DNA from: Escherichia coli
Lineage (GTDB): Bacteria; Pseudomonadota; Gammaproteobacteria; Enterobacterales; Enterobacteriaceae
Reading direction: 5' to 3' (one strand)
Assembly: GCF_024223415.1 (NCBI RefSeq)
Contig: NZ_CP100500.1
DNA length: 64,000 nucleotides
Below, piece after piece: positions 4,491 to 10,522 of the stretch. The translations under genes were made by a program, and so were the position numbers. Position 1 is the first letter of the stretch, and each line of letters opens with the position of its first letter. Under the pieces are notes generated by a model. It was not told the origin of the DNA and made no database searches. It saw only the letters and a list, made by a program, of their open reading frames with translations.

Positions 4491-4704
4491 CGCGCACCTC
4501 GTGGCTGATTATGGACGGCGTTATTGGCAAAGTGGAACAAGACTCACTCCCGGGTCAGCAAACTCGAAAAATTGACGCTGCCATTATTTGTGCTTTCGTT
4601 TTTTTCTATCCGCCAATAAACCCGTTTTTTTGTTGCTATTTAGCGCCTTTGTCTTATTGACTTACTGGTAGGCTTTGCTACCAGAAATTATCCAGGAGAC
4701 GAAA
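4491..4704. promoter_or_regulatory. Divergent fliE / fliFGHIJK control region (class 2, FlhD4C2-dependent promoters expected)
   Basis: Intergenic between divergent fliF and fliE; promoter motifs not individually resolved. Confidence 0.5.
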
Positions 4705-5019
4705 ATGTCAGCGATACAGGGGATTGAAGGGGTTATCAGCCAGTTACAGGCTACGGCGATGAGTGCGCGTGCACAGGATTCACTGCCGCAACCGACCATT
4801 AGTTTTGCCGGGCAGCTGCACGCCGCGCTCGATCGCATTAGCGATACACAAACAGCTGCCCGCACGCAGGCAGAAAAATTCACCCTCGGTGAACCCGGCG
4901 TGGCGTTAAACGATGTGATGACCGATATGCAAAAAGCCTCAGTTTCTATGCAAATGGGGATTCAGGTGCGTAATAAGCTGGTGGCCGCGTATCAGGAAGT
5001 GATGTCCATGCAGGTGTAG
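4705..5019 (+). CDS. fliE: Flagellar hook-basal body protein FliE (104 aa)
   Basis: ORF track 4675..5019; internal ATG gives [24 protein letters not shown]. Confidence 0.9.
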
Positions 5020-5352
5020 GTTTTGTAACCTGTTGTTAATTACTTCCAATCTCACCGCTTGGGGCATGGATGGGGCAAACTCACTCAATTTCTGGTTTAA
5101 AATGGATACCTGATCCTGAAAGTTTTCTGCCATCCACGATCCGTAAACGCGATAACATGTTTTGTCTTCGCTTTGCTCATAGGAAGAGTGAACTCTTTTG
5201 TTAGCCTGGGGTTCCTTCTGATCATTATTGTTCCTGCCTTTATCTCTTGCCACGCCAGAGCCCCCTGGATACACATACACCAGGATGAAAACGGTGAGTT
5301 GTGTTCAAACTGTAGTACAATTCTCTCCAGTATGAACAGGAAAGAATATGCT

Positions 5353-5685
5353 ATGAACCCTTATATTTATCTTGGTGGCGCAATACTTGCAGAGGTCATT
5401 GGTACAACCTTAATGAAGTTTTCAGAGGGGTTTACACGGTTATGGCCCTCTGTTGGCACAATTATTTGCTATTGTGCATCATTTTGGTTATTAGCTCAGA
5501 CACTGGCTTATATACCTACAGGGATTGCTTATGCTATCTGGTCAGGAGTCGGTATCGTTCTGATTAGTTTGCTTTCCTGGGGATTTTTTGGCCAACGACT
5601 GGACTTGCCAGCCATCATAGGCATGATGTTGATTTGTGCCGGTGTGTTAGTCATTAACTTGTTGTCACGAAGCGCACCGCATTAA
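5353..5685 (+). CDS. emrE: SMR-family multidrug efflux transporter, EmrE-like (110 aa)
   Basis: MNPYIYLGGAILAEVIGTTLMKFSEGFTRLWPSVGT... near-identical to recalled K-12 EmrE (2 substitutions near C-terminus); start taken from ORF track frame. Confidence 0.85.
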   Translation: MNPYIYLGGAILAEVIGTTLMKFSEGFTRLWPSVGTIICYCASFWLLAQTLAYIPTGIAYAIWSGVGIVLISLLSWGFFGQRLDLPAIIGMMLICAGVLVINLLSRSAPH

Positions 5686-5853
5686 AAAATAATCATCCTT
5701 GAGATAACAGGAATCTGATTTGTGCATATTATGGCTAATGTTCGGGGCAACTTTATAATTATGATTGCATTTGCGCGATCATTGCGCCTTTTTGCATAAT
5801 GAGATCAATGCACATCAAATAAAATAACGATAGGTCACAACAAAGAGGTTTTT

Positions 5854-6405
5854 ATGAAAAAACTTATCGTTTCAAGTGTATTGGCATTCATAACATTTTC
5901 TGCGCAGGCCGCAGCATTTCAGGTCACTAGTAATGAAATAAAAACAGGAGAGCAACTTACAACGTCTCATGTATTTTCTGGATTTGGGTGTGAGGGGGGT
6001 AATACATCGCCCTCATTAACCTGGTCTGGTGCTCCAGAAGGCACCAAAAGCTTTGCCGTAACTGTGTATGATCCAGATGCGCCTACAGGCAGCGGATGGT
6101 GGCACTGGACTGTTGCTAATATTCCAGCAACGGTAACATATTTGCCCGCTGATGCAGGAAGACGTGATGGTACAAAACTTCCGACTGGTGCTGTCCAAGG
6201 CCGAAATGATTTTGGTTATGCGGGATTTGGTGGAGCATGTCCTCCCAAAGGAGATAAACCCCATCATTACCAGTTTAAAATATGGGCTCTAAAAACTGAT
6301 AAGATTCCTGTGGATTCTAATTCCAGCGGAGCGTTAGTTGGTTATATGCTTAATGCCAATAAAATTGCAACCGCTGAGATAATACCCGTTTATGAGGTAA
6401 AGTAG
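5854..6405 (+). CDS. ybcL: Periplasmic PEBP/YbhB-YbcL family protein with signal peptide (183 aa)
   Basis: ORF track; N-terminal signal peptide MKKLIVSSVLAFITFSAQA; PEBP-type motifs (DPDAP, GxHHY). Confidence 0.75.
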   Translation: MKKLIVSSVLAFITFSAQAAAFQVTSNEIKTGEQLTTSHVFSGFGCEGGNTSPSLTWSGAPEGTKSFAVTVYDPDAPTGSGWWHWTVANIPATVTYLPADAGRRDGTKLPTGAVQGRNDFGYAGFGGACPPKGDKPHHYQFKIWALKTDKIPVDSNSSGALVGYMLNANKIATAEIIPVYEVK

Positions 6406-6414
6406 GATAAGAGT

Positions 6415-7212
6415 ATGCTGGCAAAAGATAGGACTAACCTAAAGATTGAAGAAATACGGATGCATAAACATCATGAGATTCACAGGGTTAAGCCTCTTAT
6501 GCCAGCTTTATGTCGTATCCGTCAGGGAAAAAAAATTATCAATTGGGAGACGCATAGTCTAACTGTTGATAATAATCAGATAATATTATTTCCCTGTGGA
6601 TATGAATTTTATATTGCGAATTACCCAGAAGCAGGTCTTTATCTTGCAGAAATGCTTTATTATCCCATTGATCTAATTGAAAAGTTCCAAAATCTTTATG
6701 CGATAACCGATCAAATTCGTAACACGACAGGTTTCTGCTTACCTCAGAATCCCGAGTTAATATATTGTTGGGAGCAACTAAAAACATCTATTTCCCGAGG
6801 CTTCTCAACGCAAATTCAGGAACACTTAGCAATGGGCGTTCTACTTTCATTAGGAGCACATCATGTTAATTGTTTACTTTTATCAGATAGTAAACAATCA
6901 TTAATAAGTCGTTGTTATAACCTAATGCTATCCGAACCTGGAACAAAATGGACAGCAAACAAGGTAGCGAGATATCTCTACATTTCTGTTTCCACATTGC
7001 ATCGCCGTCTGGCAAGCGAGGGAGTAAGTTTTCAAAGTATATTGGACGACGTGAGGTTAAATAATGCGTTGTCTGCTATACAAACGACAGTAAAACCCAT
7101 CAGCGAGATTGCCAGGGAAAATGGTTACAAGTGTCCTTCTCGTTTTACTGAAAGGTTCCATAATCGTTTTAAGATAACACCAAGAGAGCTAAGAAAAGCG
7201 TCCAGAGAGTAA
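6415..7212 (+). CDS. ybcM: AraC/XylS-family transcriptional regulator (265 aa), YbcM-like
   Basis: ORF track; C-terminal AraC-type HTH region ([27 protein letters not shown]...[19 protein letters not shown]). Confidence 0.7.
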
Positions 7213-7503
7213 AAGTATTTTATGAAGGAGCAACAGCATAGATTTTTATTTTGGAAAATAAATACGGCATACTCAACCTATTGGAGCCTGAACAATCCGG
7301 TGACTTCTGCGCTAATCGGGGACGTTTATAAGCACATATAATTGATACTATCTTCCTCCATCACAATTTCAGAAATGCACGTGTGATTTTTTTGCATCCG
7401 GCGTTTGGACTATGTGGAGTTCAAGAGTGGGAAAGTTACAAGAGGTTGAGGGGATAATTAAAGGGATGCTTATGACATTAGATATCCGGATAGGTACGGA
7501 TAT

Positions 7504-7543
7504 CGTTGTTATTAAATCTAGTTCGTTGTTATTAAATCTAGTT
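7504..7543. repeat. Perfect tandem direct repeat, 2 x 20 bp (cgttgttattaaatctagtt)
   Basis: Read directly in sequence within the AT-rich non-coding stretch. Confidence 0.85.
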
Positions 7544-8175
7544 TATACGTTAAGATGCAGCTACAGCAGAAATTGCCACTGTTAATTTTTTCATCGTGAG
7601 CCTTTTATTTGAACTATTATTTAAAAATGATGTCACTGCACTACAAATATTCATCCAATCAATGAGATTATTTCAAGATGTAAGTTTTAGTTTCTCATTT
7701 AAATTGTGAAGTAGATCCCTATCTTTATCTGAACTGTTTCTATTGCACACAATGCATGACTATTTTGTGAACGAATATAAATTTGGTAGTTAAATTATAT
7801 TAAAGGTTGTTATTTATGATTGACTCATAATTTATTTATTTAATTTAAATAGCCTAGAAATAACCATGGAAATTATTTGCATGATGTTTGTTTAGATTTA
7901 TTAATGTAATTGAGGTGGTTTTATTTAATACGCAATATAGCGCCGCTTGATATTAGTTCTATTTTTTTTGCGTAAGATAGATGAGACAAACTGAGACGCA
8001 TAATGGTTTGCAAGGCTCTAATACTTTGATGTTGAGGATGTGATGGGGCATGTACGGGGCATAGTACAATGATGTCCATGCTGGTGTAGATAATCTCCAG
8101 GCTTATCCGGTGCGCCGTAAAACCCCGTCCTTCAGGGCAGGGATATAAGGCGTGGTTTTCCACCTGACCAGGTGT

Positions 8176-8595
8176 TTGCTGTTGTTCAATGTATTGGCGG
8201 ATGACGGATATTGGCGCACCTCCGCAGCTACTGGCAAAATAGCCAGGACTCCACAAAACGCCTTTGTAGTAATACCTGACTGCAATATCTGGTCGATCTC
8301 GTCGCAGTCACCTACCCGATACGCCTTTGAGGCTGTTTACCAGACTGGATATCGCCAGTTTGGGAGGATAGTTAATTAACAAATGGACGTGATCTGGTTC
8401 GCCATCCATTTCAACCAGTTCAGCTTCAAAATCAGCACATACATTTGAAAAGTAAGTGCGTAGTTTTTCTGTCGCGTCATGGTCAAAAATCTGACGTCGG
8501 TATCTGGTGACAAAGACCAGGTGAACATGCATCAGGAAAACACAATGCCTTCCACGCCGGATATCGGTTTCTTTTTTCACAGACCAAAGTATCAT
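8176..8595 (-). pseudogene. tnpA: IS200/IS605 Y1 transposase TnpA, disrupted (split over two frames)
   Basis: ORF 8308..8595 carries the HVHLL HuH motif; conserved WSPGYFASSCGGAPISVIRQYIEQQ is in another frame (ORF 7921..8256) and reads through without a nearby stop. Confidence 0.7.
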
Positions 8596-8602
8596 TTGGC
8601 CT

Positions 8603-9811
8603 GTGAAACGACTACAAGCATTTAAATTCCAGTTAAGACCCGGTGGTCAACAGGAGCGTGAAATGAGGCGCTTCGCAGGCGCATGTCGTTTCGTTTTCAA
8701 TCGTGCTCTGGCACGTCAGAATGAGAATCATGAGGTCGGTAATAAATACATCCCTTACGGGAAAATGGCTTCCTGGCTGGTTGAGTGGAAAAATGCCACT
8801 GAAACGCAATGGCTTAAAGATGCCCCGTCACAGCCATTGCAACAGTCACTGAAAGACCTTGAGCGGGCTTACAAAAACTTCTTCCAGAATCGGGCTGCTT
8901 TTCCCCGATTCAAAAAGCGGGGACAGAATGATGTATTCCGCTACCCGCAGGGCGTTAAGCTCGATCAGGAAAACAGCCGTATTTTTCTGCCGAAACTGGG
9001 CTGGATGCGCTACCGGAACAGCCGTCAGGTCACGGGTGTTGTGAAAAATGTCACTGTCAGCCAGTCCTGCGGTAAGTGGTACATCAGTATTCAGACAGAA
9101 AGTGAAGTATCAACTCCGGTTCACCCTTCAGCATCAATGGTCGGGCTGGATGCTGGCGTGGCTAAACTCGCCACGCTGTCAGATGGCACAGTCTTTGAGC
9201 CTGTAAACAGTTTTCAGAAAAACCAGAAGAAGCTGGCGAGACTTCAGCGACAGTTAAGCCGCAAGGTCAAATTCAGCAACAACTGGCAGAAGCAGAAACG
9301 CAAAATACAGCGACTGCATTCCTGTATCGCAAATATCCGCAGGGACTACCTTCACAAAGTCACAACGACCGTCAGCAAAAACCACGCAATGATAGTCATT
9401 GAGGATTTGAAGGTCAGCAACATGTCAAAGTCAGCAGCGGGTACGGTCAGCCAGCCGGGGCGCAATGTCCGGGCAAAATCAGGTTTAAACCGTTCGATAC
9501 TGGATCAGGGCTGGTATGAAATGCGCCGCCAGCTTGAGTACAAGCAGCTCTGGCGTGGCGGTCAGGTGCTTGCTGTTCCGCCAGCGTACACAAGCCAGCG
9601 TTGCGCGTGCTGTGGTCATACAGAGAAAGAAAACCGCCTGTCACAAAGTAAATTCAGATGCCAGGTATGTGGATATACAGCGAACGCCGATGTAAATGGC
9701 GCTCGTAACATTTTAGCGGCGGGGCACGCCGTTCTTGCCTGTGGAGAGATGGTGCAGTCAGGCCGCCCGTTGAAGCAGGAACCCACCGAAATGATTCAGG
9801 CGACAGCCTGA
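8603..9811 (+). CDS. tnpB: TnpB (IS605 OrfB family) RuvC-like RNA-guided endonuclease (402 aa), apparently intact
   Basis: ORF track; N-terminal [13 protein letters not shown]; Ruv[19 protein letters not shown], RuvC-II IEDLKV, zinc finger CACCGH...CQVCG, Ruv[13 protein letters not shown]. Confidence 0.9.
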
Positions 9812-9850
9812 ACGTAGCAGGGATCCTCGTCCTTCAGGGCGTGGAGGATG

Positions 9851-10522
9851 TCAACAAACAGGTTGAATTAACTCCGCGCCCTGGTTTTTGACATTACCTA
9901 CCGCGCGCGATACCGGGTGCCAGGTGAACTGGTTTGCTGGCACACAGCCGTTGGTAGCAATTTCTGATGCTTCTTTACCGCCAATCTCTTGCCGCATCCA
10001 TTCCTGTGCAGCTTCTGGCGACAGAACCAGCGGGCGGCGGTCATGAATATCTACCAGACCCTGGTCTGCTGCTGCAGTGACAATTAAAAATCCTTCGGCT
10101 TCGTCACCGCGCTCAAACGGTGTGCTACCTATCGCGGCCATAAAAACAGGTTGTCCATCAGCGCGATAGATAAAATAAGGCTGTTTTTTGTCGCCTTCTT
10201 TTTTCCACTCAAACCAGCCATCGGCAAAACAGATTGCCCGACCATGTTGCCAGAGCGGTTTAAACATACGACTGGTGGCCGCAGTTTCTACGCGGGCGTT
10301 AATCAGCGGCGGTTTATCCCACCATCCGGGAGCATATCCCCAGAAAACCGGATCCAGATGAAGGTGTTCATCACGTTCACTGAGCAGAAGAACTTTGGTT
10401 CCCGGCGCGACGTTGTATCTGCCAATGGGTTCGGGATCGTAGGGAATATCGCGTTCAATATCTTCCGCGAGAAGCGCAAGGTAATCTTCACGCGTTTGGG
10501 ATTGGGCAAAGCGTCCACACAT
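9851..10522 (-). CDS. yedK: SOS-response-associated peptidase (SRAP) YedK, abasic-site processing protein
   Basis: ORF track; MCGRFAQSQTREDYLALL with the catalytic Cys2 start typical of SRAP proteins. Confidence 0.9.
   Translation of the reverse strand: MCGRFAQSQTREDYLALLAEDIERDIPYDPEPIGRYNVAPGTKVLLLSERDEHLHLDPVFWGYAPGWWDKPPLINARVETAATSRMFKPLWQHGRAICFADGWFEWKKEGDKKQPYFIYRADGQPVFMAAIGSTPFERGDEAEGFLIVTAAADQGLVDIHDRRPLVLSPEAAQEWMRQEIGGKEASEIATNGCVPANQFTWHPVSRAVGNVKNQGAELIQPVC

Follow-up and report, generated by a model that had tools for sequence, protein, structure and literature searches.

Phage 82 (X92588) and complete phages such as PhiR68_2 share the gene order ybcL-ybcM-orf33/ylcH-ybcN-ninE-ybcO-rusA-ylcG-Q-(porin, opposite strand)-S-R-Rz. 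In the phage 82 record (X92588), the spacer ahead of orf33 is annotated, at record positions 50 to 127, with a putative -35 and a putative -10 element, a palindromic “possible regulator-binding site,” and a ribosome-binding site for orf33. In the DLP12 prophage of Escherichia coli K-12, the Q antiterminator is QuuD, a protein that matches the Pfam family Phage_antitermQ, and the porin gene is nmpC. According to a review (PMC12197685), processing of the K-12 porin transcript yields the small RNA IpeX from the 3′ untranslated region (UTR) of the porin.

The locus described here lies in a 64,000-nucleotide stretch of the E. coli contig NZ_CP100500.1 (RefSeq assembly GCF_024223415.1), hereafter the window. 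Its positions 7213 to 8040 are very probably inert debris left by a lambdoid prophage of the DLP12/phage-82 kind, with a neutral VNTR in it. From emrE to the nmpC upstream region, the gene order is the same as in K-12 DLP12 and phage 82, with 82 to 92% nucleotide identity. However, the chromosomal site is different, fliE-yedK here and the DLP12 site in K-12. The window has no ybcK, none of the genes from ybcN to ylcG, only a small part of Q, and no lysis or structural genes. Both DLP12 and the window carry an inactivated porin gene, inactivated by IS5 in K-12 and by a deletion of codons 15 to 360 and the 3′ UTR here. The biological weight of the locus is small. It combines prophage decay, in which a deletion and not an IS5 insertion as in K-12 has cost the phage its porin, with slippage in dead DNA.

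The 20-bp array in this debris resembles bacterial VNTR or minisatellite loci (E. coli MLVA loci) in its head-to-tail units and in its range of one to five copies among near-identical alleles. As in MLVA-type loci, it shows the internal-unit expansion that is typical of slippage. The array sits in a pseudogene remnant, not in an open reading frame (ORF) or a REP-type element.

Remains of the nin-Q-porin module between fliE and yedK

The island that includes this stretch occupies window positions 5157 to 8107, between fliE (4675 to 5019) and yedK (9851 to 10522, minus strand), where K-12 has yedL-yedN-intG. Next to fliE, homology to the K-12 chromosome extends up to 5156; beyond an IS200/IS605 element, it restarts at 9855, right at the stop codon of yedK. 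After fliE come emrE, ybcL (5854 to 6405), and ybcM (6415 to 7212), an intact ORF of 265 codons for an AraC-type protein (Pfam HTH_18, E = 1.5e-16). A literature search on the gene combination of the island found nothing relevant. In strain CFSAN061772, ybcM (L001 5204 to 6000) is annotated as frameshifted, and the counterpart of 7213 to 8040 is 100% identical to that of the window; decay of ybcM may be under way in some lineages.

As the earlier note had described it, the DNA downstream of ybcM is AT-rich and has no long ORF: the GC content is 0.321 at 7213 to 8040, and 0.252 at 7595 to 7931, compared to 0.498 for the 64-kb window, and the longest stop-to-stop frame spans 79 codons. In the sampled genomes that carry the whole stretch, PGAP places no features under 7213 to 8040, barring IS1 insertions in a few of them, and an Rfam scan of positions 5000 to 10000 at E ≤ 1 produces no match inside it.

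The blastn searches show that window positions 5699 to 7429 align with positions 4739 to 6469 of the K-12 DLP12 segment (L010) at 89% identity, a block that includes ybcL, ybcM, the ybcM-ylcH spacer, and ylcH. Positions 7429 to 7523 align with L010 8242 to 8338, the last ~95 bp of quuD, at 82% identity, and positions 7554 to 7931 align, on the minus strand and again at 82%, with the first codons of nmpC and its upstream region. The DLP12 blocks, at 82 to 92% identity, come in the expected order and orientation, and the block with the porin 5′ end and upstream region has a ~82% match in 40 phage records, 434 and ev243 among them. Every block up to 7931 aligns with the nin-Q-porin module of DLP12 and phage 82, in agreement with the earlier suggestion of horizontally acquired DNA or decayed phage genes. 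Silencing by H-NS is plausible from the AT content of this DNA, which is of phage origin and has a GC content of 0.25 to 0.39, compared to 0.50 for the window. Beyond the porin upstream region, the window contains no DLP12 match, and intact Q, lysis, and structural genes are absent. As judged by these alignments, the stretch is a relic and not a prophage. Of Q, only ~32 codons survive, and of the porin only 14.

The homologue of the ybcM-ylcH spacer of DLP12 and phage 82 (7213 to 7328, plus strand) is part of the 89% block, and the left arm of the phage 82 palindrome is degraded in it. It is followed by a relic of ylcH, the orf33 of phage 82 (7329 to 7429, plus strand), whose start codon has changed from ATG to ATA and whose frame is broken; K-12 ylcH (L010 6369 to 6470) maps to window positions 7329 to 7430. 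Near 7429, this relic is fused directly to a 3′ relic of quuD (7429 to 7523, plus strand) with the last ~32 codons of the gene, whereas ybcN-ninE-ybcO-rusA-ylcG and most of quuD are gone. In addition to the blastn match, BLASTP aligns the Q relic with the QuuD C terminus (19 of 30 residues identical, E = 7e-11): the plus-strand frame over 7429 to 7523 ends in KLQEVEGIIKGMLMTLDIRIGTDIVVIKSS, and K-12 QuuD ends in RLQKAEGIIEGMLMALDIRLEMDIVVNNSN, followed by the stop. A 57-residue ORF that spans the Q relic bears the UniRef name “Antitermination protein” for strain ED1a. The terminator scan detects a weak plus-strand hairpin at 7481 to 7504, which is also present within the intact quuD coding sequence of K-12.

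Strain UPEC_U013 carries a less reduced version of the locus, in which ybcM is followed by 500 bp, an intact porin of 360 amino acids (Pfam Porin_1, E = 1.3e-153), and then yedK, with no IS. Such an intact-porin allele is found in ~455 of 5426 complete E. coli genomes. The deletion from ylcH to Q is common to the window and UPEC_U013 and is older than the deletion of the porin. Compared to UPEC_U013, the window is without L002 3779 to 5000, which contains porin codons 15 to 360, the 3′ UTR, and the terminator hairpin GGGGCGTTGAAACGCCCC. What is left is a remnant of an NmpC/Lc/OmpD-type porin (7550 to 7594, minus strand) that consists of 14 codons from the ATG, MKKLTVAISAVAAS, which represent the start of the signal peptide, and then a stop codon. 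Both K-12 NmpC and the UPEC_U013 porin begin with exactly this 14-residue peptide, MKKLTVAISAVAAS, and the upstream region is homologous as well. However, the window retains the signal-peptide start alone and has not kept a complete porin ORF with a Porin_1 domain, whereas other strains encode the intact 360-residue protein.

The junction of the porin deletion falls between 7553 and 7554, where GATACGTTAA on the left meets GATGCAGCTAC on the right, which results in the stop codon after porin codon 14. To the left of the junction, comparison with UPEC_U013 leaves ten bases, TATACGTTAA (7544 to 7553), as the remainder of the spacer between Q and the porin. The junction is identical in all 12 of the other porin-deleted alleles that were read, which argues for a single event, and no microhomology was found at it. 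The porin stump and the deletion junction, both missed in the earlier note, explain the anatomy of the stretch. The K-12 spacer between quuD and nmpC, with the porin 3′ UTR and its terminator hairpin, is deleted in the window: neither L010 8341 to 8529 of K-12 nor L002 3779 to 3958 of UPEC_U013 has a counterpart there. Because the porin 3′ UTR is deleted, the window has no homologue of IpeX.

To the right of the junction, window positions 7554 to 8107 match the intact-porin allele of UPEC_U013 at 98% identity. They include the upstream region of the porin (7595 to 7931, minus strand), with its 5′ UTR and promoter, whose AT-rich core has a GC content of 25%. By homology, this core is the orphaned porin promoter region, a point that the earlier note had likewise missed, and its AT content is most probably native to the DNA upstream of the phage porin. 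The promoter scan detects a single sigma-70-like site (7803 to 7774, minus strand), compared to 5 expected by chance. Several small differences among alleles occur in or near this region. Four to 7 nt upstream of the porin ATG, at 7598 to 7601, the window has GAGCC, whereas six other aligned alleles have GAGCCC. The (ATTT)3 microsatellite at 7830 to 7841, in the porin upstream region, has 2 units in strain 12867 and 4 units in strain 455, and match spans of 826, 830, 834, and 838 to 839 bp suggest 2 to 5 ATTT units across genomes. A poly-T run near 7964 to 7971 varies by 1 nt.

These features very probably reflect a history in which a lambdoid prophage once resided between fliE and yedK and two successive illegitimate deletions shrank its ybcL-ybcM-ylcH-ybcN-ninE-ybcO-rusA-ylcG-Q-(porin, opposite strand) segment. 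The older deletion would have joined the 3′ end of ylcH to the last ~32 codons of Q. The later one would have removed the porin unit from codon 15 through the 3′ UTR and terminator, so that the promoter region and the ribosome-binding site were left in front of a 14-codon stump. After this second deletion, the 20-mer at the dead end of Q was probably duplicated once. Replication slippage or unequal recombination between the copies would then have lengthened, and perhaps also shortened, the array, giving the present range of one to five.

Copy number of the 20-bp repeat

The VNTR (7504 to 7543) consists of two exact copies of CGTTGTTATTAAATCTAGTT, which start at 7504 and 7524. Tandem Repeats Finder reports it as 7503 to 7543, with a period of 20, 2.0 copies, and 100% matches, confirming the perfect 20-bp tandem duplication of the earlier note. 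The array is the sole exact tandem duplication with a unit of 12 to 40 bp in the 64 kb, against a chance expectation of ~1e-6 or less. The unit corresponds to the end of the dead Q frame, its final six codons up to the stop, (AT)C GTT GTT ATT AAA TCT AGT T(GA), and the C terminus that reads DIVVNNSN before the stop in K-12 QuuD reads DIVVIKSS in the window. The 20-mer is present in a single copy in K-12 and the phages (as the variant CGTTGTTAATAACTCTAATT), in all sampled intact-porin alleles, and in ST131.

Among the porin-deleted alleles that were read directly, there is one copy of the unit in KOr024, R32_14_1F, 13C1079T, 2013C-4282, and Santai; two copies in the window, CFSAN061772, 455, and 12867; three copies in 09-00049 and STEC2018-553; four copies in AH01 and SW070917; and five copies in 13KWH46. 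The array is a true VNTR. Class sizes were derived from megablast searches at an E-value limit of 1e-300, at which alignments that need a 20-nt gap are dropped and each query recovers its own class; these indirect and approximate counts, checked on sampled rows and fetched sequences, are 77 genomes with one copy, ~641 with two copies (APEC O78 carries this number), 264 with three copies (E. coli W falls in this class), and at least 34 with four or five copies. The classes total ~1016 genomes, compared to 1035 genomes in which 80% or more of the stretch is present.

A comparison of the flanks alone shows that the three divergent porin-deleted haplotypes, which are 14 to 28 SNPs away from the rest, have one copy each, so that one copy is the ancestral state. 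All multicopy arrays are found within a group of alleles that differ by no more than 10 SNPs, and one-copy alleles are found in that group as well. Strain SW070917, with four C-type units, is 1 SNP away from the one-copy KOr024. A second haplotype series runs C/C-GG, C/T/C-GG, C/T/T/C-GG, and C/T/T/T/C-GG and thus grows by an internal T-type unit. Taken together, this series and the SW070917-KOr024 pair show independent expansion on at least two occasions by the gain of internal units, which is a signature of replication slippage or unequal exchange. Flanking microhomology at the first duplication amounts to 1 nt at most, and DNA folding around the array (z = -1.7) reveals no notable structure that would explain slippage.

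The comparison of relatives, which gave 1, 2, 3, 4, and 5 copies, speaks for the recent slippage duplication that the earlier note had put forward, whereas its other suggestion, a repeated binding site, found no support in Rfam matches, DNA structure, or literature on the unit. No paper containing the unit sequence was found in the literature search. Slippage as the mechanism is inferred, and the array is most likely selectively neutral, as judged from its context and the small number of substitutions; per-segment divergence includes too few substitutions to show selective constraint.

It is very unlikely that the array functions as a repeated protein-binding site or as a phase-variable contingency locus, with its copy number tuning how much is transcribed from the orphaned porin promoter or how stable an antisense RNA running into ybcM-ybcL-emrE is. 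Copy number does shift recurrently among near-identical haplotypes, as noted above, but 232 of the 264 alleles with three copies match the query at 99% identity or more, and the large, stable allele classes look like inheritance, not rapid switching. The location of the array, directly 3′ of the minus-strand 14-codon ORF whose native terminator has been deleted, with no minus-strand terminator-like site found in 7150 to 8150, would suit such a role. However, the repeated unit is nothing more than the tail of the dead Q and is found once where an intact Q or porin is present; its length of 20 bp is not divisible by 3, and no conserved ORF contains the array. Further, it contains no known motif or structure, with a fold z-score of -1.7 and no Rfam match.

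The orphaned porin promoter, which keeps its upstream region, ribosome-binding site, and start codon, may still be active; with the terminator lost, its transcript would cross the 14-codon ORF and the VNTR and extend, in antisense orientation, into ybcM. In an even less probable version of the functional scheme, this transcript would run on through ybcM-ybcL-emrE, and the copy number, from 1 to 5, would serve as a heritable and quickly mutable dial on the antisense RNA. If this were true, it would represent a contingency locus made from prophage debris.

As a neutral VNTR in prophage debris, which is the preferred reading, the array belongs to a well-known kind of locus in a well-known kind of prophage relic, and this particular locus is apparently undescribed; to our knowledge, it is not among the published CVN or ms MLVA loci. 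Roughly one in five complete E. coli genomes carries the 20-bp VNTR, with its 1 to 5 copies, and the (ATTT)n microsatellite as polymorphic markers, which could serve fine-scale typing.

The 39-codon frame and the authenticity of the repeat

A 39-codon ORF (7222 to 7341, plus strand) starts 9 bp past the ybcM stop, at the position and with the translation given in the earlier note, where it was regarded as a possible small phage-region protein. It is extremely unlikely to be a genuine small-protein gene of the prophage island that follows ybcM or is coupled to it in translation. The ORF is intact, with 0 or 1 amino acid changes, in the window, UPEC_U013, and ST131, but its start codon and frame are not kept in other homologues: in K-12 DLP12 and phage 82, the ATG is replaced by AAG and a 1-nt insertion breaks the frame, and R32_14_1F has a TAG stop at codon 4, with the start region of the ORF being its most diverged part (9 of 116 nt).

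The tblastn search of 50,697 phage records, which the earlier note had proposed as a check, returned only two-piece, frameshifted matches to the 39-residue peptide (E = 0.01 to 0.04). The pieces lie in different frames and overlie the putative -35 and -10 elements, the palindrome, the ribosome-binding site, and the orf33 start of phage 82. The peptide has no match in Pfam and no exact copy among 15 billion predicted proteins, and PGAP never calls the ORF. No Shine-Dalgarno sequence is found upstream of 7222, and the AAGGAG motif falls inside the ORF. This frame most likely arose by chance over a former phage promoter region and is predicted to be noncoding; it should be kept out of small-protein catalogues.

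The least tenable reading takes the 20-bp duplication for an error of assembly or sequencing, or for a repeat that arose by chance in this low-complexity, AT-rich DNA, which contains other simple repeats, (ATTT)n and poly-T. The population data refute it: the two-copy allele is found in ~641 independently finished genomes, and the 1-, 3-, 4-, and 5-copy alleles are found in tens to hundreds of genomes and carry unit-specific SNPs. The chance expectation is ~1e-6 per window, and the arrays, at 100 bp or less, are far below the sequencing read length.

Right flank, IS elements, and the ST131 allele

The right flank of the island (7932 to 8107, ~176 bp) is 99% identical to L002 5348 to 5555 of UPEC_U013 and is contiguous with the yedK stop codon in IS-free strains. 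It has no match in K-12 DLP12 or in the K-12 interval between fliE and yedK. At 8045 to 8067, this flank, just outside the IS element, contains a near-tandem 11- to 12-bp repeat, GGGGCATGTAC GGGGCATAGTAC.

The IS200/IS605-family element (8108 to 9854, plus strand; boundaries from the comparison with the IS-free UPEC_U013) contains a tnpA pseudogene with an internal stop (8164 to 8595, minus strand) and an intact tnpB gene for a protein of 402 amino acids (8603 to 9811, plus strand), both as annotated by PGAP in an identical allele. In R32_14_1F, tnpA is intact at the same IS site. The element is inserted after GGCTTATC at the yedK stop, so that the end of YedK changes from IQPV to IQPVC, a gain of one residue. 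The only two hits of the Rfam scan, both sub-threshold, lie in 9738 to 9867, which covers the tnpB 3′ end and the right end of the IS, where a TnpB guide (omega) RNA would be expected; they are RAGATH-18 (25 bits, E = 0.16) and HgcC (19 bits, E = 0.31).

Recurrent activity in the island is displayed by IS1, which is inserted within 7213 to 8040 in several strains. In strain EC2641 (L011 3288 to 4073), an IS1-associated deletion takes out everything from emrE through window position 7967. This strain, which matches only 7968 to 8040, was considered as an island-free reference and rejected, as it carries the IS1-mediated deletion and is uninformative on the border of the island.

The ST131 allele shows a further deletion, between two GCAGCTAC octamers located at window positions 7557 to 7564 and 8227 to 8234. 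Its segment L003 4157 to 4681 corresponds to window positions 7369 to 7564 joined to 8235 onward, a fusion in which a truncated tnpA runs on into the Q relic, read in antisense orientation. The locus accounts for some odd automatic annotations, namely, the 57-residue “antitermination protein” fragments and the TnpA fusion of ST131. As a result of the octamer deletion, PGAP annotates the latter as an IS200/IS605 transposase, a chimeric “TnpA” of 174 amino acids (WP_001347174.1), in which prophage debris encodes the ~51 residues at the C terminus.
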